Origin: Candidatus Lokiarchaeum ossiferum
GTDB lineage: Archaea > Asgardarchaeota > Lokiarchaeia > Sigyniarchaeales > Promethearchaeaceae
DNA: 32,000 nucleotides
Reading direction: 5' to 3'
Assembly: GCA_025839675.1 (NCBI GenBank)
Contig: CP104013.1
Coordinates: 3,540,001 to 3,572,000 of the forward strand
Both the position numbers and the translations under genes were made by a program. Below are positions 590-12,908 of the stretch, in pieces; the first letter of the stretch is position 1; every line of letters starts with the position of its first letter. The notes below the pieces were generated by a model that searched no databases, was not told where the DNA came from, and saw only the letters and a list, made by a program, of their open reading frames with translations.

Positions 590-1558
590 TTAATCCAAAA
601 AGAGATGGAACAGATCCTTAATAACATCCAAATGGGCTAAAAAGTCCCAATTCTTGAATAAAAAAGGTTTAATTTGCTCTTTAAACATTTGAGCCCAATC
701 ATGGTCACCCAATGCTTTTGAAATAATCGTGATATAATGTTTTAGGGATGTATTGAACAAATCAATCATAATTTCTATGTCTACATCTTCAACCTTCATC
801 TCAAATAATTTATTTCGATTTGCTTCCACAAAGATGATCTTTTCTTTTTTCATATCTACACGAGGGATAAAGATATGCAATATTTCAAAAGTTTTTTCGA
901 ATCCTTCCTTTCTAGACCATGTTTCAAGAATTAACGGCAACTTCTTCAAATTTAGTAAAATATATTTTAGACGCATCCCACTAAATTTATTTTCTACTAT
1001 TCTAATGAGTTTAATAAAGAGATTTTGATAAATTCCCAGTAGATCAAACATCTCACCTAAATTTGTTGATTGATAGGCTCGCTTCCATTGAAAATGGATC
1101 TTTTCGATTCTGGTATGAAATCCATCGAATTGAGTTGTTTCCTTATCCCAGAAGTCCCAAAAAATACCTTTCACTTTGTATTCATTGATAAATACCCGAT
1201 CTAAGACTTTTAATTGGGAAAGAACTAAATGATAATGACTCGGTTGGTCCGTAGCGGCCACATATAACAAGTTTGCCTCAGAATTAATGTAATAAACCCA
1301 ACTTAAATTTCCCATGTTCACCGATTCAATACCTTGGTTTCCCATTTTCATCTCACTGAATTGATTTAGGGCTGATAGCAATCCGGAAATCATTATTCCG
1401 TCTAATTCGCCATCTTGGGAAAAATCATGGTAGAAAATGTTCAATGATGAGTTTTTCTCAATGATCCAGAAATGTTTGATTTGAAATGATTTGATCACTT
1501 TAACCTCATTTCTCAACTTTTTATCTGATTTTTGATGAAACGCCTCATCATATTCCAT
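590..1558 (-). CDS. hypothetical protein, possibly with an N-terminal longin/roadblock-like domain
   Basis: It is a 322-aa ORF convergent with the upstream gene. The N-terminal ~130 aa shows a beta-beta-alpha-beta-beta-alpha pattern (HFWIIEKNSSLNIFYHDF / DGIMISGLLSALNQFS / LSWVYYINSEANLLYVAATD / HLVLSQLKVLDRVFINEY). I recognise no catalytic motif. Confidence 0.55.
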   Translation of the reverse strand: MEYDEAFHQKSDKKLRNEVKVIKSFQIKHFWIIEKNSSLNIFYHDFSQDGELDGIMISGLLSALNQFSEMKMGNQGIESVNMGNLSWVYYINSEANLLYVAATDQPSHYHLVLSQLKVLDRVFINEYKVKGIFWDFWDKETTQFDGFHTRIEKIHFQWKRAYQSTNLGEMFDLLGIYQNLFIKLIRIVENKFSGMRLKYILLNLKKLPLILETWSRKEGFEKTFEILHIFIPRVDMKKEKIIFVEANRNKLFEMKVEDVDIEIMIDLFNTSLKHYITIISKALGDHDWAQMFKEQIKPFLFKNWDFLAHLDVIKDLFHLFLD

Positions 1559-1712
1559 AGGTTATTTAAAATATTCATATATTAAAAATACCACTTTTTT
1601 GTCATCTGGACCAATTTTGGTTTTGAAGAAAGGTTTTTAATGAAAAGATAATTTAATGGGGTTAATTTGCAGTGATTAAATTTTCATTATTATAAATAAG
1701 AAGGAATATCCT

Positions 1713-1823
1713 ATGAATCGCACAAAATCGATAAATTCTCATTCTCACACTTTATCGTTACGTGGATTTTCTCTTCTTGGTTTATTACACTTGCAATTGT
1801 TAGTTCTTCTTCTCTTATTATAG
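1713..1823 (+). CDS. Leu-rich leader peptide (36 aa) upstream of leuA
   Basis: ATG 1713 to TAG 1821-1823 encodes MNRTKSINSHSHTLSLRGFSLLGLLHLQLLVLLLLL. It has 14 Leu in total, and 12 of the last 16 codons are Leu, running right up to the stop. A partial SD (AAGGA, 1701-1705) lies 7 nt upstream. It is not in the ORF track because it is under 60 aa. Confidence 0.6.
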   Translation: MNRTKSINSHSHTLSLRGFSLLGLLHLQLLVLLLLL

Positions 1824-1824
1824 T

Positions 1825-1900
1825 GGCCTCTTAGATTCTTGGCTATTATAATCCATCTTTCTTTTGAATCTAAGGGGCCGCTGTTGAAACATTAGAATTC
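1825..1900 (+). promoter_or_regulatory. alternative RNA pairings between the Leu leader and the leuA SD
   Basis: S1 (1825-1838, GGCCTCTTAGATTC) pairs with S2 (1866-1879, GAATCTAAGGGGCC) over 14 bp with one G.U. S1 starts 2 nt after the leader stop. S2 (1866-1873) can instead pair with S3 (1892-1900, TTAGAATTC) over 8 bp with one bulged A, ending 2 nt before the leuA SD AAGGAG (1903-1908). Confidence 0.5.
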
Positions 1901-1922
1901 AAAAGGAGATTTTAGACAAATT

Positions 1923-3545
1923 ATGACCCAAAATAAAAATATTTCAGTTTCCCAAATGATGGAAAAGATGCAAAATCAAATGAATTTGCCTCCCCACGCC
2001 TACTACTTTGACACTACTCTACGAGATGGTGAGCAAACCCATGGAATTGTATTTAATATGAATGAAAAACTCGAAATTGCCCGGAGTCTAGATAATTTGG
2101 GCATCGATGTGATTGAAGCAGGATTTCCCGTCGTCTCTGATGGCGACTTTCAAGCCTGCAAAGAAATTGTGAAACTTGGCTTAAAGGCAGAAATTGCTGG
2201 ATTGGCTCGATTAAATCAACAAGACATTGATTGCGCTGTAGATGCCGATCTGGATGCCATCCACGTATTTATCGCTACGTCAGATCTGCATTTGAAGAAT
2301 AAATTAAAAATGACTCAAGATCAAGTCCTATCGAAAATTGAAAGCTATGTTTCCAAGGCGAAAGAAAATTTTACCAATGTAGTCTTCTCGGCCGAAGATG
2401 CTACTCGAACAAACTTGGATTTTCTGATTAAATGCAATGAACTCGCTGTAAATTCTGGGGCAACTCGAATCAATATTCCAGATACAGTTGGGACTATTAC
2501 CCCGATGGCGTATGGATACATAATAAAAGAACATTACAATAAGTTGCCTAAAAATATCCGAATTTCGGCACATTGCCATAATGATTTTGGTTTAGGTGTT
2601 GCTAATACCATTGCAGCTTTTGAAAATGGGGCTTCCGAAGCACAAACAACAATCTTAGGTTTAGGTGAACGAGCAGGAAATGCGGCATTTGAAGAAACTG
2701 CCATGTCTTTGTATGCTCTCTATGGATTGAAATCCAATATTATCTATAACAAAATTTATCCCACTGCAAAACTAGTAGAAAGATATTGCGGTGGAAAAAT
2801 TTCGATTGGAAGACTGACTCCTTTGATTGGGAAAAACGCCTTTTCCCATGAGTCTGGTATTCATGCTCATGCAATGATTCAAAATGCTCGAACCTATGAA
2901 CCAATTTCTCCTTCATTATTAGGAATTCCGCGCTCTGATTCCAAATCAGCAATAGTTGCCCAATCTATAAAACTCGGAAAACACACAGGTAATCATGCCT
3001 TGAGGGCTAAAATTAATGAAATAGGTATTATTCCTACGGATGAGCAGTTTTCAACGATTCGGAATAACATTAAAAGGATTGGCGACAAAGGACATGAAAT
3101 TCGAGAGGAAGATTTTCTCGCTATCGTTAAAGATGTGATGGGGGAGATTCCAGAACAAGAAAAATTCGTAATATTAGAAGAATTGACAGTATTGACCGGA
3201 TCAGTTACCCCGACTGCAACGGTTCGGTTGAAAATTCGAAACAATGGAGATTTCATTGAAAGAATTGCCTCCTCCATTGGTAATGGTCCTGTGGATGCCA
3301 GCATCAATGCTATTGTAAAATGTTTTTCCAAAATGTCGAAAATTCTATTGCTCTCATTTGATATTGAAGCCATCACCGGAGGTACTGATGCTTTAGGGCA
3401 TGTATCCATAGAAGTGGAAGATATTGAAACCAATAATATCGTCTCTTCCAATGCGACCCACGAGGATGTGGTCATGAGTGCCGTATTAGCCATGATTAAA
3501 GCCTTGAACAAACTTGTACGGGAAAAAAATTCCTCCCAAGCATAA
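1923..3545 (+). CDS. leuA: 2-isopropylmalate synthase
   Basis: It is 540 aa with the aldolase motifs FDTTLRDGEQ, HCHNDFGLGVANT and GLGERAGNA, plus a C-terminal regulatory (LeuA-dimer type) domain. The SD AAGGAG is at 1903-1908. The leuA-versus-cimA assignment is supported by the Leu-rich leader. Confidence 0.8.
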   Translation: MTQNKNISVSQMMEKMQNQMNLPPHAYYFDTTLRDGEQTHGIVFNMNEKLEIARSLDNLGIDVIEAGFPVVSDGDFQACKEIVKLGLKAEIAGLARLNQQDIDCAVDADLDAIHVFIATSDLHLKNKLKMTQDQVLSKIESYVSKAKENFTNVVFSAEDATRTNLDFLIKCNELAVNSGATRINIPDTVGTITPMAYGYIIKEHYNKLPKNIRISAHCHNDFGLGVANTIAAFENGASEAQTTILGLGERAGNAAFEETAMSLYALYGLKSNIIYNKIYPTAKLVERYCGGKISIGRLTPLIGKNAFSHESGIHAHAMIQNARTYEPISPSLLGIPRSDSKSAIVAQSIKLGKHTGNHALRAKINEIGIIPTDEQFSTIRNNIKRIGDKGHEIREEDFLAIVKDVMGEIPEQEKFVILEELTVLTGSVTPTATVRLKIRNNGDFIERIASSIGNGPVDASINAIVKCFSKMSKILLLSFDIEAITGGTDALGHVSIEVEDIETNNIVSSNATHEDVVMSAVLAMIKALNKLVREKNSSQA

Positions 3546-3578
3546 TCCTCCCCATTAAATTTATATTGATAGTTATTC

Positions 3579-3585
3579 TTTTTTT
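3579..3585 (+). terminator. T7 tract downstream of leuA
   Basis: The sequence agttattc-ttttttt-cat lies 34 nt after the leuA stop and before the SD of the next leader ORF. Confidence 0.35.
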
Positions 3586-3613
3586 CATATTCTCTTTAGG
3601 AGAAACTCAAATA

Positions 3614-3727
3614 ATGTCACAACTAACCTGTCCTCAAAATACCTCCATTGTTAATCTTTCTAAGGTAGGGTTAGGTTTACGCATTATTACCATTATTTCT
3701 TTGATTATTCTTATTATTATCTGCTAA
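3614..3727 (+). CDS. Ile-rich leader peptide (37 aa) upstream of cimA
   Basis: ATG 3614 to TAA 3725-3727 encodes MSQLTCPQNTSIVNLSKVGLGLRIITIISLIILIIIC. It has 10 Ile in total, and 9 of the last 14 codons are Ile. The SD AGGAG (3598-3602) lies 11 nt upstream. It is not in the ORF track. Confidence 0.6.
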   Translation: MSQLTCPQNTSIVNLSKVGLGLRIITIISLIILIIIC

Positions 3728-3735
3728 GATATTAA

Positions 3736-3833
3736 ACTCTTTGCCGATAATAATCTCGTTTTTACGTTTAAATTTTTGGTGAAGGGTGCAGATTTAATTA
3801 GGATATTTTGGAAATCTTGGAAATCACCAAAAA
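3736..3833 (+). promoter_or_regulatory. alternative RNA pairings between the Ile leader and the cimA start
   Basis: S1 (3736-3745) pairs with S2a (3778-3787) over 10 bp including 3 G.U. S2b (3773-3782, TTTTTGGTGA) pairs with S3 (3824-3833, TCACCAAAAA) over 10 bp perfectly. The two S2 arms overlap, so the structures exclude each other. T5 tracts lie at 3759-3763 and 3773-3777. A tandem direct repeat TTGGAAATC x2 lies at 3808-3825. Confidence 0.45.
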
Positions 3834-3849
3834 CTCACAGGAAATCAAA

Positions 3850-5559
3850 ATGAATACTACACTTGTTCAACTTTACGATACTACTTTACGCGATGGCTTA
3901 CAAATGGCCGGAATAGCGCTATCACAGCGAGACAAATACTTACTAGTTCAGATGCTACACAACCAGTTGAATATTAATCATATTGAGATTTACCCGTTTT
4001 CCAACCCGAAAGATCGTGAATTGATTTCCATGGTAAAACAAAACACACCTGAACTTTTGGATGCGTTGGTGGCTTTTGGGTCTACCAGAAATGTGAAAAA
4101 TATCCCTCAAAATGATCCTAATCTACTATCTCTTTCCACTTGTGGGCTGAAAAAAGCCACAATATTTGGGAAATCTTGGATTTTACATTTAGAAGCTATT
4201 CACGCTTCACCAGAGGAAAATTTGGCAATGATTGCTGATTCCGTAACATATCTCAAAGAAGCTGGGTTAACAGTTATCTATGATGCGGAACACTTCTTCG
4301 ATGGATACAACGAAAATCCAAAATATGCTTTAAAAACTTTGTTAGCTGCCGAAAATGCTGGAGCAGATTATCTGATCCTATGTGATACCAATGGAGGATG
4401 CCTTCCCTCTGATATAAAACAAATTGGACAAGAAATATTGAAACATACCAATGTTCCTTTAGGAATCCATACTCACAACGATTCTGGTTTAGCCGTTGCT
4501 AATTCCATAGTCTTTACACAACTGTGTTTAGATGCGGGGCGACGTTGTCAAGTTCAAGGAACCTTAAATGGGATTGGAGAACGATGTGGCAATGCGAACC
4601 TTATCACCTTAATCCCAATTTTGAATCTTAAATTAAATCAAAAAATCATCCAGAAGGATAATTTTGCGAATTTAACTTCCTTAGCAAATGTAACGCTTGA
4701 AATTATGAACTTAAATCCCTCTGCAAATTCTCCTTTTGTGGGATCCAATGCTTTTTCCCATAAAGGTGGAATGCATATAGCCGCTGTTCGGAAAAATAAT
4801 TCTCTCTACGAACATATTAATCCAAAATGTTTAGGAAACAAACGCAAATATTTAATAAGTGAAATGGCCGGACGAAGTGCTCTTTTACAAAAAATGTCTC
4901 AATTCGAGATTCCTGTTGATAAGGATAATCCTCTCCTTGCTGAAATCTTGAAAAAAATTAAGACAAAGGAGTCGAAGGGATATACATACGAAGGTGCGGA
5001 TGCTTCCCTCGAGATTTTGATCCGGAGTTTAATCGCAGATTCAAATCGGGATATTAATTTTTATCGCCAAAAGTTCTTTGAAGTGGATTATTTTAGGGTT
5101 GTTATAGATGCCCGCAATCTATTTAACAAGAATGCTATTTCAGTTTTTACTGATGCAAATGTGAAAACTTCTTTCTTTCAAGGGGATGTTAAACGCGATT
5201 TTCATACAGCGGATTCTGGAAATGGGCCGGTAAGTGCTTTAGATAATGCGCTCCGAAAAGCCTTGATAAATTTCTATCCTGCGTTAAACGAAATCGAGTT
5301 ATCTGATTTCAAAGTACGCATCAGCAATGTCTATGATAGTGATCATGGTACTGCCTCCCGTGTTCGAGTTTTAGTAGAAACTAAAGATCTAGATGGGCAG
5401 ATATGGAATACAGTTGGAGTGCATTCAAACATTATATTGGCCTCATTTATTGCCTTAGTCGATTCATTTATTTATAAATTACTTAAGAATAATGTCAATC
5501 CAGTGGAACATCAGAGTTCAGTGGAAGTACCTGAGGTGAAATCAGCGATAAAAATGTAG
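3850..5559 (+). CDS. cimA: LeuA-related long-form synthase, probably (R)-citramalate synthase
   Basis: From ATG 3850 it reads MNTTLVQLYDTTLRDGLQ, with HTHNDSGLAVANS, NGIGERCGNANL and a C-terminal regulatory domain. It resembles the LeuA-related branch that contains Geobacter-type CimA (IE..P.SNPKD motif). The track ORF starts at an upstream in-frame TTG at 3808. The Ile-rich leader supports an isoleucine-pathway role. Confidence 0.62.
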   Translation: MNTTLVQLYDTTLRDGLQMAGIALSQRDKYLLVQMLHNQLNINHIEIYPFSNPKDRELISMVKQNTPELLDALVAFGSTRNVKNIPQNDPNLLSLSTCGLKKATIFGKSWILHLEAIHASPEENLAMIADSVTYLKEAGLTVIYDAEHFFDGYNENPKYALKTLLAAENAGADYLILCDTNGGCLPSDIKQIGQEILKHTNVPLGIHTHNDSGLAVANSIVFTQLCLDAGRRCQVQGTLNGIGERCGNANLITLIPILNLKLNQKIIQKDNFANLTSLANVTLEIMNLNPSANSPFVGSNAFSHKGGMHIAAVRKNNSLYEHINPKCLGNKRKYLISEMAGRSALLQKMSQFEIPVDKDNPLLAEILKKIKTKESKGYTYEGADASLEILIRSLIADSNRDINFYRQKFFEVDYFRVVIDARNLFNKNAISVFTDANVKTSFFQGDVKRDFHTADSGNGPVSALDNALRKALINFYPALNEIELSDFKVRISNVYDSDHGTASRVRVLVETKDLDGQIWNTVGVHSNIILASFIALVDSFIYKLLKNNVNPVEHQSSVEVPEVKSAIKM

Positions 5560-5622
5560 GAATTGATCAAAACTTTCTGGTTTCAATAGCAAAGTACCAG
5601 AGATAAAAATGACATTTAAAGA

Positions 5623-5628
5623 TTTTTT
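5623..5628 (+). terminator. T6 tract downstream of cimA
   Basis: The sequence ga-tttttt-aacg lies about 65 nt after the cimA stop. Confidence 0.3.
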
Positions 5629-5781
5629 AACGAAATTCATTCTAATTGCTCAATATTAGAATAAAATATTTTTAGTGAATTTTGAGATTTAATACTTGTA
5701 ATATAGTATTTCAATTTTGATAATTGGGGCATTTTCAAAAAGTTTAATTACTTTTCTTACTTTTAGTAAAACAATATCTTT

Positions 5782-5934
5782 GGAGCCAATCTTAATGTCT
5801 AAAATATTTCACGCTCGAAAAATTCCATTCTTTCTTTTAAAAATTCGCGTGATTTTAGTCATTTTACTTGTACTTATTATTATTTGCTAGATTGGCTCCT
5901 TATCGATTATACTTTATTAGTTGGTAAGGAGTTG
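5782..5934 (+). promoter_or_regulatory. mutually exclusive pairings: a leader-bracketing stem versus an ilvB SD-sequestering hairpin
   Basis: A (5782-5792, GGAGCCAATCT) pairs with B (5889-5899, AGATTGGCTCC) over 11 bp perfectly, enclosing the whole leader ORF. B' (5893-5909) pairs with C (5918-5934) over 17 bp (11 Watson-Crick, 6 G.U) with an 8-nt loop. C contains the ilvB SD AAGGAG (5926-5931). B and B' overlap. Confidence 0.55.
5795..5890 (+). CDS. Ile/Leu/Val-rich leader peptide (31 aa) upstream of ilvB
   Basis: ATG 5795 to TAG 5888-5890 encodes MSKIFHARKIPFFLLKIRVILVILLVLIIIC. Twelve of the last 13 codons are I, L or V. The SD GGAG (5782-5785) lies 9 nt upstream. Its last ~20 nt (CTTATTATTATTTGCTAG) nearly match the end of the Ile leader (CTTATTATTATCTGCTAA). 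Confidence 0.65.
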   Translation: MSKIFHARKIPFFLLKIRVILVILLVLIIIC

Positions 5935-5938
5935 AACA

Positions 5939-7804
5939 ATTATCAAAGGCACGAAAATTATAAAGAAAATCCTAAAAGAAACAGGAAACACCACCCTCTT
6001 TGGGTATCCTGGAGGTGCAATTATGCCCTTCTATGACGAAATCTATGAAGATCCGGATATTCGAAGTATTTTGATGCGACATGAGCAAGCTGCAGGCCAT
6101 GCGGCTGAAGGATTTGCAGTCGCTTCTGGGAAATTGGGAGTTGTTATGACCACTAGCGGACCTGGAGCGACCAACGTAATCACTGCTCTCGCCAATGCCT
6201 ATTACGATAGCTCTCCTCTCTTGGCATTTTCAGGGCAAGTTCCAACTCATTTAATTGGAAATGATGCTTTTCAAGAAGCCGATTTAATAGGTTCTACTAT
6301 GGCTATCACAAAACACAATTATCTAATCAAGAATGTTAATGATGTGGGTCGAATTTTTAAAGAAGCAATTCATATCGCTACAACGGGAAGACCTGGTCCA
6401 GTTTTTATTGATTTACCTAAGGATGTACAAAAGGCCGAAAGTACGGCAAAATTACCTATTCCTATGGATATCTCCTTAGTTGGTTATAATCCAATCACAT
6501 TCACCAATGCAGTAAAACGGCAAGTAAAAACGGCTTTGCAAATAATCTCTGAAGCCCAATATCCTGTAATCATTGCTGGAGGTGGAACTTTACTAGCCAA
6601 TGCCTCCGATGCTCTTCAACAGTTCGTCGACACTCTTAGGATCCCAGTGGTCTATACATTAAAAGGTAAAGGAGTTTTGAGTGATGATCATCCCTATGTG
6701 CTTGGATTGATTGGAATGCATGGTCGGAAACGTGCCAATTTTGCTGTTTCTGAAGCGGATGTTGTGATTGCTCTTGGTTGTCGGTTTAGTGATCGCATTA
6801 CAGGTGATTTACAGAAATTTCCTGGCCAGTCCAATGCAAAAATAATTCATGTAGATATCGATGCTGCAGAAATTGGAAAAAATGTATCGGTCGATCTCCC
6901 AATCGTTGCCGATGCAAGATGTGCTTTGGATGAATTTAATCATCAAATTCAAAAATCTTTGGTAAGAAATGAGTCTTATCCCATGAAATCATGGTGGTAT
7001 AAATTCATAGATGGATTAAAAGCCTCTTCTGGTATCCCCAATGTAACTACTCCTGGAAAAACTGGTCTAATCTTACCCGAAAAAGTGATGTATGAAATTA
7101 ATCAAATATTGGAACCAGATGATATTGTTGTGAGTGAAGTAGGACAAAATCAAATGTACTGTGGTCATTATTTGAATATTCGAAAGCCTCGGACATGGAT
7201 CACTTCAGGAGGCCTTGGTACTATGGGTTTTGGTTTTCCAGCCTCTATTGGAGCGAAGGTGGCAAAACCAGATTCTGAAGTCTGGTTGATAGCGGGTGAT
7301 GGATCCTTTCAAATGAATATGGCTGAATTAGCAACCCTCAAGCAACATAACATCAAAGTCAATATCGTGATCTTGAATAACCAATATCTTGGGATGGTGA
7401 GACAATGGCAAGAATTATTCCATGAAAAACGATATGCTGGAACATGTCTGCAATGCGATAATGGGGAGTATTGGCCTGATTTTGTGAAATTAGCGGAGGC
7501 ATATGGATTCAAAGGTCTACGAGTAACTGATCCCGCCGAAGTACGCATGGCTCTTGAAATATGTCGTTCATCAAAGGAATCCTTTATCGTTGAATTAATG
7601 ATAGAACCAGAATCCAATATTCTACCAATGTTACCTCCTGGGGGGGCACTCAATACATTCTTCAGCCGAAAAAGGGAAAAACGATCAATCTATGATTGGT
7701 ATCGACGACTTCCTCGAATTGAAAGCGAAGTAGTTGGCTATAAAGTACAAAACACCAATGAAGATGCATTTTCGGTGTATTATGAACAGGAGATGTCACG
7801 ATAA
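5939..7804 (+). CDS. ilvB: acetolactate synthase (acetohydroxyacid synthase) large subunit
   Basis: It is a ThDP enzyme with the motifs GYPGGA, GPGATN and GLGTMGFGFPASIGAK. The track ORF starts at ATG 6023, but the conserved N-terminus (IIKGTKIIKKILKETGNTTLFGYPGGAIMPFYD) is encoded in frame upstream with no AUG/GUG/UUG. ATT 5939 lies 7 nt after AAGGAG, and an in-frame TGA at 5933 sets the upstream limit. Confidence 0.85.
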   Translation: MIKGTKIIKKILKETGNTTLFGYPGGAIMPFYDEIYEDPDIRSILMRHEQAAGHAAEGFAVASGKLGVVMTTSGPGATNVITALANAYYDSSPLLAFSGQVPTHLIGNDAFQEADLIGSTMAITKHNYLIKNVNDVGRIFKEAIHIATTGRPGPVFIDLPKDVQKAESTAKLPIPMDISLVGYNPITFTNAVKRQVKTALQIISEAQYPVIIAGGGTLLANASDALQQFVDTLRIPVVYTLKGKGVLSDDHPYVLGLIGMHGRKRANFAVSEADVVIALGCRFSDRITGDLQKFPGQSNAKIIHVDIDAAEIGKNVSVDLPIVADARCALDEFNHQIQKSLVRNESYPMKSWWYKFIDGLKASSGIPNVTTPGKTGLILPEKVMYEINQILEPDDIVVSEVGQNQMYCGHYLNIRKPRTWITSGGLGTMGFGFPASIGAKVAKPDSEVWLIAGDGSFQMNMAELATLKQHNIKVNIVILNNQYLGMVRQWQELFHEKRYAGTCLQCDNGEYWPDFVKLAEAYGFKGLRVTDPAEVRMALEICRSSKESFIVELMIEPESNILPMLPPGGALNTFFSRKREKRSIYDWYRRLPRIESEVVGYKVQNTNEDAFSVYYEQEMSR

Positions 7805-8322: not shown

Positions 8323-8323
8323 A

Positions 8324-8336
8324 TTTTTTTTTTTTT
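8324..8336 (+). terminator. T13 tract between ilvN and ilvC
   Basis: Thirteen uninterrupted T's begin 2 nt after the ilvN stop and lie 20 nt before the ilvC ATG. Confidence 0.4.
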
Positions 8337-8355
8337 ACAATGGAGAAGAACTAAA

Positions 8356-11021: not shown

Positions 11022-11055
11022 ATTTTTTTAAGACATTCATTACAGGGTAATAATA

Positions 11056-12884: not shown

Positions 12885-12908
12885 TTTTTTTTATATTGAA
12901 GGTGAAAA

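Follow-up and report, generated by a model that had tools for sequence, protein, structure and literature searches.

A short open reading frame (sORF2) that ends in a run of isoleucine codons and precedes the citramalate synthase gene cimA in Candidatus Lokiarchaeum ossiferum is very probably a leader that senses isoleucine and regulates cimA. We regard it as fairly probable that it does so as a leader-peptide attenuator, i.e., as a sensor on which ribosomes stall and which thereby controls cimA, this overall judgement being a compromise, while the particular termination mechanism described below (hairpin T with U5 tracts) is offered as a tentative proposal. The sensor is well supported, and its output would be termination, translation or stability.

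The leader ORF and its probable target gene

The window, by which we mean the whole stretch of 32,000 nucleotides that was analysed, contains the following elements around sORF2:

3560..3567 (+), TATA-like box TTTATATT with CATTAAA on its 5' side, 54 nt upstream of the sORF2 ATG
3598..3602 (+), AGGAG, a Shine-Dalgarno-like motif, 11 nt upstream of the sORF2 ATG
3614..3727 (+), sORF2, Ile leader ORF of 37 codons (ATG 3614 to TAA 3727), translation MSQLTCPQNTSIVNLSKVGLGLRIITIISLIILIIIC and stop
3850..5559 (+), cimA, citramalate synthase (TIGR00977 match and identity with an NCBI protein)

The Ile run occupies codons 24–36 of sORF2 (3683–3721) and is followed by Cys and TAA. Nine Ile fall within the final 14 codons, with a chance probability of about 2e-7 to 3e-6, and the spacer between sORF2 and cimA is 122 nt long. 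An earlier note had proposed an Ile-rich leader ORF here; this is borne out, with an archaeon as host, and every element which it had listed was found in place when rechecked on the sequence. An independent assembly is identical across 11.6 kb. The box at 3560–3567 is the putative archaeal promoter of an sORF2-cimA unit; a TATA-like box lies 52–55 nt upstream of the sORF ATG in the window and in the related loci L083, L084 and L085, and a similar TTTTTATAGG is present in L087. GGAG stands 9–11 nt before most gene starts of the window (range 9–14), and likewise before the ATGs of sORF2 and of sORF3, a further leader ORF described below. A short ORF enriched for the end product between promoter and first structural gene, as in bacterial attenuators, is what is found at sORF2.

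The downstream gene had been taken for a citramalate-type synthase, which appears correct, as its product scores 567.3 bits against the NCBIfam equivalog TIGR00977 (cutoff 450, residues 6–549). An NCBI protein from Ca. Lokiarchaeum ossiferum that bears the name (R)-citramalate synthase has the identical sequence (100%). Starting CimA further upstream, at the in-frame TTG at 3808, was considered and rejected, because this N-terminal extension is not conserved. The proposed link between Ile and cimA is kept in L088, where cimA does not adjoin ilv genes. If the leader works as suggested, it would represent independent genetic evidence that CimA feeds isoleucine synthesis in Lokiarchaeia.

Conservation of sORF2

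sORF2 precedes cimA in L082–L085 (CimA identity 77–80%) and in the more distant L087 (62%), and a diverged Ile-rich sORF is found before cimA in L088 and probably in L002; conservation reaches down to 57–62% CimA identity. The Ile leader is absent before cimA in L089, L202, L203 and L205. As a negative control, genome contigs were scanned with a CimA protein pattern (universal motif); the matches listed all had at most 49% identity and were mostly bacterial, and no such sORF was present at the 77 bacterial cimA loci among them. A phmmer search with the sORF2 peptide against 1.84 billion representative proteins returned one homologous cluster only (36 aa), and the 112 stretches of metagenome contigs that matched the DNA pattern TCTAAGRTAGGRTTAGG were all chance matches.

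Within the Ile run, the positions of individual Ile codons shift between relatives while Ile richness is retained, i.e., composition is conserved and not exact order. In its N-terminal half, the peptide is conserved in sequence (QNTS..SKVGLGL). The L088 peptide is hydrophilic apart from an Ile tail of 11 residues, and this speaks against a membrane peptide.

Predicted RNA structure of the leader

The pairings and repeats considered in and behind sORF2 are the following:

3610..3688 (+), helix P0, in which 3610–3617 (AATAATGT, with the sORF2 start codon inside) pairs with 3681–3688 (GCATTATT, the first Ile codons)
3713..3754 (+), hairpin T, in which 3713–3729 (last three Ile codons, Cys and stop) pairs with 3738–3754
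3736..3787 (+), hairpin S1, with arms 3736–3747 and 3776–3787, beginning 8 nt past the sORF2 stop codon
3759..3777 (+), T5-N9-T5 module in the S1 loop (T5 at 3759–3763 and 3773–3777)
3773..3833 (+), helix 2, in which 3773–3782 pairs perfectly with 3824–3833
3788..3822 (+), block after S1, which pairs with the Ile-codon run (3690–3724)
3808..3825 (+), TTGGAAATC twice in tandem, a duplication of a conserved TT(A/G)GAAATC element

Hairpin S1, the first of the two helices in the earlier note, is a conserved RNA helix, judging from its presence in the RNAalifold consensus and from two compensatory double changes relative to L087. Its core of 10 bp (3736–3745 with 3778–3787, 3 of them G.U) is lengthened by RNAfold to 12 bp (3736–3747:3776–3787) around a U-rich loop of 28 nt; by composition alone, a 12-bp stem that allows G.U arises in 5% of shuffles of the 122-nt spacer. 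The block after S1 pairs with the Ile run and thereby lengthens S1 to an imperfect hairpin of about 130 nt, and in each of the five close orthologues this duplex is better than in shuffles (P 0.000, 0.000, 0.006, 0.024 and 0.038). The covariation throughout rests on few events, since there are just six sequences to compare, five of which are close.

The start of sORF2 is itself enclosed in structure. P0 is predicted in all orthologues; a comparison of the close clade with L087 reveals two compensatory double changes in it, and it encloses hairpin P1 (3623–3629:3667–3674 and 3640–3644:3663–3667), which is part of the RNAalifold consensus. At the other end of the ORF, hairpin T stops 4 nt short of the first U5, and it and S1 exclude each other. 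When the RNA present at the moment polymerase reaches the first T5 is folded, hairpin T has -12.0 kcal/mol (P = 0.003 vs. shuffles), and it is likewise predicted in L084 (P = 0.007) and absent from L082, L083 and L085. It is followed by CUCG-U5, but it is A-U rich and confined to the window and L084; no U run follows helix 2.

Helix 2 had been proposed as a perfect 10-bp alternative to S1. It is indeed present and perfect (0.6% of shuffles of the 122-nt spacer give such a stem, P = 0.006), and it excludes S1 because the two overlap, but it is absent from the consensus fold, and its pairing in orthologues is no better than composition. The tandem 9-nt repeat fared similarly: it is real but not conserved, being a lineage-specific local duplication where orthologues carry a single TT(A/G)GAAATC, and a third GGAAATC copy lies at 3840–3846, within the cimA ribosome-binding region. 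As in bacterial attenuators, the regulatory codons lie in or next to a strand of mutually exclusive helices, with a chain of T, S1 and helix 2 in the window. Among these alternative pairings, only S1 and that of the Ile run are conserved.

The T5-N9-T5 module consists of candidate weak archaeal termination or pause signals. The view of T tracts as termination signals, already put forward earlier, agrees with the local sequence, where T7–T13 follows almost every stop codon of the window genes and runs of T>=5 are depleted on the sense strand of genes. Mere presence of two T5 tracts in 122 nt is not significant, because intergenic DNA of the window has 12.6 runs of T>=5 per kb. Their conservation is significant: each of the five close orthologues has a T5 in the S1 loop, although the bases around it differ.

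Because the 3' arm of S1 is transcribed after both tracts, termination at them cannot depend on S1, and for this reason of timing S1 was rejected as an antiterminator of the T5 tracts. S1 with a following U run as a terminator was also rejected, because control would run in the wrong direction; in L087, a U5 does come after S1 itself, where the same simple logic would give the wrong direction of control. Archaeal polymerases are not known to require hairpins for termination, or to respond to them.

Sister leaders before leuA and ilvB

Two further leader ORFs were found in the same cluster:

1713..1823 (+), sORF1, Leu leader, translation MNRTKSINSHSHTLSLRGFSLLGLLHLQLLVLLLLL and stop, before leuA (1923–3545)
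5795..5890 (+), sORF3, Ile/Leu/Val leader, translation MSKIFHARKIPFFLLKIRVILVILLVLIIIC and stop, before ilvB

When the 285 sORFs of the window are ranked by I+L+V near the C-terminus, those before leuA, cimA and ilvB take ranks 1–3, and each is enriched for the end product of the gene downstream. sORF1 has 10 Leu (the next best sORF has 6), its hairpin 1821–1838:1866–1883 begins at the stop codon, and in the consensus fold of this leader the Leu codons are paired with the leuA GGAG. At sORF3, helix A (5782–5792:5889–5899) masks the sORF3 GGAG and helix B (5896–5909:5918–5931) masks the ilvB GGAG; the two have CUCC in common, and each shows one compensatory double change between the window and L087. 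A sequestered ribosome-binding site, the hallmark of ermC/cat-type control, is therefore predicted by folding at sORF3-ilvB.

Between sORF and gene, the Leu and the Ile/Leu/Val leaders have no conserved T5, so a termination mechanism common to all three is unlikely. When a ribosome-sized mask was placed at the stop codon or 3, 6 or 9 codons before it, equilibrium folding showed no consistent gain or loss of access to the downstream RBS in any of the three leaders, and the regulatory codons as an anti-Shine-Dalgarno for the next gene were no better than composition. Points absent from the earlier note are these two sister leaders, the promoter, the downstream pairing of the Ile codons and the hairpin before the first U5.

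Proposed mechanism and alternatives

To hypothesize, transcription would begin about 20–25 nt before sORF2, from its own TATA-type promoter, and a ribosome would translate sORF2 and, if charged tRNA-Ile ran short, be held up at the nine Ile codons of the run. The Ile codons would double as a helix strand, pairing with the block after S1 and, in L. ossiferum, forming the 5' arm of hairpin T. With plentiful Ile, the ribosome would finish and leave, T could form, and polymerase would stop or the transcript would be cut at U5-N9-U5. With low Ile, the stalled ribosome would cover the 5' arm of T, polymerase would pass the U tracts, and S1 would then form, lock out hairpin T and leave cimA to be expressed. 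What the sequences show are sORF2 with its composition and conservation, the helices and the T tracts; we infer that sORF2 is translated, that ribosomes stall on it, which way control runs and, most of all, how the output step works.

The same Ile sensor could instead act on translation, the position of the ribosome on sORF2 determining whether the cimA RBS or its start codon is hidden; in the window, the U-rich loop and 3' arm of S1 would do so by pairing with 3824–3852 (extended 3:4 pairing), and untranslated cimA might then be transcribed less through archaeal polarity (FttA). We regard this as unlikely. In its favour, the ilvB sister leader clearly masks the ilvB GGAG in a 13–18 bp hairpin with a compensatory change, the Leu codons pair with the leuA GGAG in the Leu leader consensus fold, and a mechanism without hairpin-dependent termination would suit an archaeal polymerase. 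When the S1 5' arm is blocked, the cimA AUG becomes paired in the window (unpaired probability 0.08), and AUG accessibility falls in five of six orthologues. However, folding predicts that the GGAAAUC and AUG of cimA stay largely accessible whichever ribosome state is modelled, and no switch recurs consistently among the orthologues (GGAAAUC is 0.5–0.75 unpaired in most states without a consistent change, unlike what is expected of an ermC/cat-type site). Neither the Ile run nor the S1 region forms a better duplex with the cimA initiation region than composition-matched shuffles do, and pairing of the S1 3' side with that region is not supported across all orthologues. An output through mRNA stability, in which a ribosome stalled near the 5' end would block a 5'-to-3' exonuclease or cleavage in the U-rich loop, seems improbable. 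The transcript would then persist longer when Ile is limiting, as has been described for ribosomes stalled on erm leaders in Bacillus, and such an output would give the right direction of control without hairpin-dependent termination; P0 closes the sORF2 start once the first ribosome has passed, so the leader would otherwise be free of ribosomes, and the U-rich single-stranded loop is conserved. Conservation of S1 and of the Ile-run pairing would nevertheless be left unexplained, and strong hairpins would impede an exonuclease in both states.

The remaining alternatives dispense with the sensor. If sORF2 and cimA were separate transcription units, T5 would end the transcript of a small gene for a hydrophobic peptide with its own function, and TTTAAAT in the S1 loop (3766–3772) would be the TATA box of cimA. 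T tracts do end genes in this genome, a TATA-like sequence lies within the S1 loop in most orthologues, and the peptide has a conserved N-terminal half and the one homologous 36-aa cluster. Against this, RNAs that span both T5 tracts are needed to account for the compensatory changes found in S1 and for the significant pairing between Ile run and post-S1 block, the conserved N-terminal codons coincide with the conserved helices P0 and P1, and the L088 peptide is not membrane-like. Moreover, the TATA-like loop lacks the A-rich element found upstream of the three leader promoters, and the three sORFs each match the amino acid of their own pathway step, so we consider separate units quite improbable. 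It is very unlikely that an AT-rich intergenic region merely happens to hold an Ile-rich frame and some stems. ATT-rich low complexity is common in AT-rich spacers, and one antisense ORF within a gene also has nine Ile in 14 codons, but the P estimates, the conservation to 57–62% CimA identity, the compensatory changes and the three cognate leaders in one cluster all stand against chance.

Comparison with known systems

Leader-peptide attenuation is a textbook bacterial mechanism, in which the ribosome translates RNA that is still being made. A full-text literature search for attenuation by leader peptides or ribosomes, in Asgard archaea or in archaea generally, returned no report, and we know of no archaeal case. 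Rfam gave no match at gathering scores in the 32 kb, and its leader families (Leu_leader, Thr_leader, His_leader, Trp_leader, Leu/phe_leader and others) gave none at E<=5 in 1500–6100. At a permissive threshold, Rfam returned one meaningless match (mir-186, E 4.4).

It is fairly probable, in our opinion, that Lokiarchaeia run bacterial-style, codon-specific leader attenuation with archaeal parts (TATA promoters, GGAG and oligo-U), with Leu, Ile and Ile/Leu/Val leaders partitioning BCAA control. If so, this would be, as far as we found, the first ribosome-mediated amino-acid attenuation reported in Archaea, and it would mean that archaea evolved or re-invented the attenuation logic with their own transcription and translation signals. 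It would offer a testable case of archaeal translation feeding back on transcription or initiation, in a cultured Asgard archaeon with a conserved three-part system. The output, whether ribosome-controlled short U tracts or masking of the initiation site plus polarity, would itself be new, and the case would bear on what oligo-U tracts, FttA and Spt4/5 do in regulated termination in archaea. The system would also supply a search image for archaeal leaders, namely an sORF of biased amino-acid content whose start site is closed and whose stop codon is immediately followed by a hairpin.

The candidate stops are U5 tracts, as in archaeal oligo-T terminators and FttA/aCPSF1-dependent termination, but those of the leader are short (T5) and sit within the loop of a conserved hairpin. 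The archaeal terminators known to us are constitutive gene-end signals, none of them linked to a leader peptide. If FttA is involved, tnaC/Rho of E. coli is a possible analogy, with a ribosome held at the end of the leader gating factor-dependent termination downstream. What tnaC detects, by way of its nascent peptide at the stop codon, is free tryptophan, whereas the signal here would be a run of sense codons, conserved in composition and not in peptide sequence. Should the output be translational, the leaders would resemble ermC/cat attenuation, where a paused leader ribosome remodels the RNA at the next RBS; sORF3-ilvB fits this well, while cimA lacks consistent RBS masking, and the signal would be tRNA charging, not an antibiotic.

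In the ilvBNC attenuator of Corynebacterium glutamicum, an Ile/Leu/Val-rich leader peptide precedes ilvB and a terminator hairpin is used; it has several competing hairpins, and what each of them does is still under debate (PMC11857589). The archaeal ilvB leader instead masks the ilvB GGAG and has no T tract. In layout, there is a likeness to the enterobacterial leaders leuL (leu operon), ilvL (ilvGMEDA) and ivbL (ilvBN), which have the same order of promoter, short ORF of end-product codons and first biosynthetic gene, the same placement of regulatory codons within alternative RNA helices, and the same division into a Leu-only leader for the Leu step and a mixed Ile/Leu/Val leader for the common ilv genes. 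Unlike them, the Lokiarchaeum leaders belong to an archaeal host with TATA-type promoters and have no G+C-rich hairpin with a U run as segment 3:4; their sORFs are longer (31–37 codons) and carry the regulatory run at their extreme C-terminal end, the sORF2 start site is closed by a conserved helix, and an Ile-only leader is dedicated to cimA, a gene which E. coli lacks.

Branched-chain cluster and its leaders

The 3850-5559 product matches the NCBI entry '(R)-citramalate synthase [Candidatus Lokiarchaeum ossiferum]' at 100% identity and scores 567 bits against the citramalate synthase equivalog TIGR00977 (cutoff 450), while its next 24 matches, at 54-80% identity, come from Promethearchaeota, Lokiarchaeota or an 'archaeon' wherever the source is named. 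An assembly made independently from a public run showed no difference from the window across 11.6 kb. The gene, cimA, lies in a branched-chain amino acid cluster with three short open reading frames (sORFs):

1713-1823, + strand: sORF1, the Leu leader upstream of leuA, ending LLVLLLLL and stop
1923-3545, + strand: leuA
3614-3727, + strand: sORF2, the Ile leader before cimA, encoding MSQLTCPQNTSIVNLSKVGLGLRIITIISLIILIIIC and stop
3808-3825, + strand: 9-nt tandem, TTGGAAATC twice
3850-5559, + strand: cimA
5795-5890, + strand: sORF3, the Ile/Leu/Val leader upstream of ilvB, ending VILVILLVLIIIC and stop
after cimA, + strand: ilvB, ilvN, ilvC, ilvD, leuC, leuD, leuB

Of the 285 sORFs in the window that start with ATG and span 15-80 codons, counting both strands, the three leaders take ranks 1-3 for Ile, Leu and Val in the last 14 codons (12, 11 and 11; the next two have 9 and 8). 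sORF1 has 10 Leu in its last 14 codons, the runner-up 6, and the 9 Ile in 14 codons of sORF2 would arise by chance with P ranging from about 2e-7 under coding frequencies to 3e-6 for triplets drawn at intergenic composition. The richness matches the biosynthetic step: sORF1 is rich in Leu and precedes the Leu-specific synthase, sORF2 is rich in Ile and precedes the Ile-specific one, and the mixed sORF3 stands in front of the ilv-leu genes that are shared.

The ATGs of sORF2 and sORF3 are preceded by GGAG at a distance of 9-11 nt, as most genes of the window are at 9-14 nt, and sORF1 has AAGGAA about 7 nt 5' of its ATG. A conserved A-rich element and TATA-like box are found about 53 nt before the ATG of sORF2 and sORF3 (52-55 and 53 nt), and TTTAAATT stands 48-49 nt before the sORF1 ATG in two orthologues; from the positions of the TATA-like boxes, transcripts probably start about 20-25 nt before each sORF. 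Since a T7 follows the leuA stop codon and a T6 that of cimA, these promoter-like elements make the cluster look like three separately controlled units.

A 322-aa protein at 590-1558 (- strand), divergent from the Leu leader, has no match in Pfam or NCBIfam, and a 322-aa gene occupies the equivalent position in the relative L084. Elsewhere the window encodes Sec61/SecY, an EMC3-like protein, ClpB and an SNF2 helicase, among others.

Conservation of the leaders

The leaders were surveyed on contigs encoding CimA relatives. All five contigs at 77-80% CimA identity (L082-L086; L086 repeats the L085 sequence) carry an Ile sORF before cimA, and a Leu sORF before leuA where they extend far enough, with the Leu-rich sORF1 kept in L083, L084 and L085. 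L087 (62%) has an Ile sORF ending in SKKMGLGLNISSMIIILILIIC and stop, and its ilvB is preceded by an Ile/Leu-rich sORF built like sORF3, while L082-L085 have no ilvB-leader sORF and their cimA and ilvB lie 8-76 nt apart or overlap. In L088 (57%), where cimA stands apart from the ilv genes, a hydrophilic sORF ends SIISIIPIIIQ and is followed by a 12-bp hairpin; in L002 (49%) an ORF ending ISILLIIIGII precedes a hairpin with T6 in its loop. No leader sORF was found before cimA in L089, L202, L203 and L205, and L204 was ambiguous. All 77 bacterial cimA loci examined lack a leader sORF, so simple co-transfer with a bacterial cimA does not account for the leader.

Across the orthologues, individual Ile, Leu, Thr and Ser residues of the Ile run move while Ile richness is kept, as would be expected if the codons are regulatory and not if the peptide folds. 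Two conserved predicted RNA helices, P0 and P1, overlap the peptide's N-terminal half, which is also conserved.

All elements listed in the earlier note were present at its coordinates, including the 9-nt tandem, which now reads as a duplication of a conserved TT(A/G)GAAATC element similar to the cimA ribosome-binding region AGGAAATCAAAATG. Both copies and that region (3808-3849) share the cimA frame, giving a 583-aa ORF from TTG 3808; this start was rejected because the extension is not conserved in relatives, and ATG 3850 was kept. At L083 5960-6000 the conserved AGAAATCAAAA block is followed by an ATG that opens a short reading frame different from that of cimA. The arrangement resembles a second copy of the cimA initiation region, which fits the block after the hairpin S1 being a copy of the ribosome-binding region. 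In L202, a relative without an Ile sORF, about five tandem TTTAAAGATTTTAAAG copies lie immediately 5' of cimA (5900-5985).

Predicted RNA structure

The predicted helices of the Ile leader are the following:

3610-3617:3681-3688: P0, sORF2 start codon paired with the first Ile codons
3623-3629:3667-3674: P1, conserved helix
3713-3729:3738-3754: hairpin T, -12 kcal/mol, its 5' arm being the last three Ile codons, Cys and stop
3736-3745:3778-3787: S1, hairpin after the sORF2 stop
3773-3782:3824-3833: helix 2

S1 pairs over 10 bp with 3 G.U, as had been claimed, and RNAfold lengthens it to 12 bp (3736-3747:3776-3787). It is part of the RNAalifold consensus of the six informative sequences (five close), and structure alignment shows that L087 differs from the close clade by two compensatory double changes (U-A to C-G, C-G to A-U); P0 likewise has two. 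Helix 2, also proposed in the earlier note, pairs perfectly in the window but is absent from the consensus, and its segments in orthologues pair no better than composition. A perfect 10-bp stem arises in 0.6% of spacer shuffles, a 12-bp stem with G.U in 5%.

The Ile-codon run is predicted to pair with about 35 nt after S1, turning S1 into a long imperfect hairpin; this duplex outdid composition-matched shuffles in each of the five close orthologues, with P of 0.000, 0.000, 0.006, 0.024 and 0.038. Hairpin T appeared when the RNA made by the time polymerase reaches the first T5 was folded; it exceeds chance in the window (P=0.003) and in L084, its nearest relative (P=0.007), and its 3' arm stops 4 nt short of U5. 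T and S1 are mutually exclusive, as are S1 and helix 2, and thus this genome has a 1:2 / 2:3 / 3:4 chain like a classical attenuator, of which only 2:3 is conserved, along with the Ile-run pairing.

The sister leaders fold differently. In the ilvB leader (two sequences) two helices were predicted:

5782-5792:5889-5899: helix A, segment after the sORF3 stop with the sORF3 GGAG region
5896-5909:5918-5931: helix B, segment after the sORF3 stop with the ilvB GGAG

The CUCC common to both makes them alternative pairings, and each has one compensatory double change when the window is compared with L087. In the Leu leader consensus (four sequences) a conserved helix closes the sORF1 start site, a 14-19 bp hairpin lies at the stop codon (1821-1838:1866-1883, + strand) and the Leu codons pair with the leuA GGAG (1901-1909). 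Neither sister leader has a conserved T5 from sORF to gene.

Near the conserved N-terminus of ilvB (5925-5945) there is no in-frame ATG, GTG or TTG; TTG 5932 is out of frame in the window, whereas L082 and L087, differing by 1 nt, have an in-frame TTG or ATG. Past TGA 5933-5935 the frame is open, and ATT 5939 and ATC 5942 stand 7 and 10 nt after AAGGAG. Since an AT[CT] AAA GG motif 9-10 nt 3' of GGAG recurs in L082 and L087 ilvB, the sequences suggest a non-canonical AUY start; L084 has ATC after a weaker GGAA. This start region is identical in the independent assembly.

T tracts

The two T5 tracts, proposed as termination signals, were found at 3759-3763 and 3773-3777. Two in 122 nt is about the intergenic rate here, so their presence alone is uninformative. 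The T5 in the S1 loop is invariant in the five close orthologues, with differing flanks, and a second T4-T6 tract then follows. Runs of T7-T13 come after almost every stop codon, also within the cluster (T13 between ilvN and ilvC), and runs of at least five T number 1.4 per kb on the sense strand of + genes, 4.5-5.7 antisense and 12.6 in spacers. Oligo-T is the established archaeal termination signal, and with this distribution it is plausible that the short T5 tracts are weak, regulatable stops.

The long tracts (8323-8355, 11022-11055, 12885-12908 and most other gene ends) begin a few bases from the stops. In the ilv-leu cluster T tracts also lie between genes without space for a promoter, so they must frequently be read through, which may be a sign that termination is suppressed by a ribosome following close behind.

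Proposed mode of action

We consider it highly probable that an Ile-sensing leader precedes cimA, and support for the sensor is good: a shortage of charged tRNA-Ile would make the ribosome dwell on the sORF2 Ile run, one strand of the conserved helices. S1 was ruled out in two roles: as controller of the T5 tracts, which are transcribed before its 3' arm, and as a terminator, with which the direction of control would be wrong.

For the output we tentatively favour termination, the best fit to this genome with the right direction of control, though we would put it at somewhat below even chances. With plentiful Ile the ribosome would depart, hairpin T would form beside U5-N9-U5 and the transcript would be terminated or cut there; with scarce Ile the ribosome would cover the 5' arm of T, polymerase would pass, S1 would form and block T, and cimA would be expressed. 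This reading has weak points: no use of hairpins by archaeal polymerases is known, hairpin T is absent from three close orthologues, L087 has U5 3' of S1, and the sister leaders look translational. Translational control followed by polarity is a live alternative for cimA; ribosome-sized masks at several positions did not consistently make the cimA ribosome-binding site more or less accessible in the model, and the site is mostly open in every modelled state. Another live alternative is that the stalled ribosome stabilises the mRNA.

Comparison with known systems

A full-text literature search, in which absence is not proof, turned up no description of leader-peptide attenuation from any archaeon, Asgard or otherwise, and no Rfam family matched. 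Differences from bacterial attenuators are that the putative promoters here are archaeal in type, that there is no bacterial-type terminator, and that the 77 bacterial cimA loci do not have the element. The logic is shared with the enterobacterial leu, ilvGMEDA and ilvBN leaders, and the Corynebacterium ilvBNC leader follows it too (PMC11857589). We therefore file the Lokiarchaeum leader as one that works like a bacterial attenuator while standing outside every described family.
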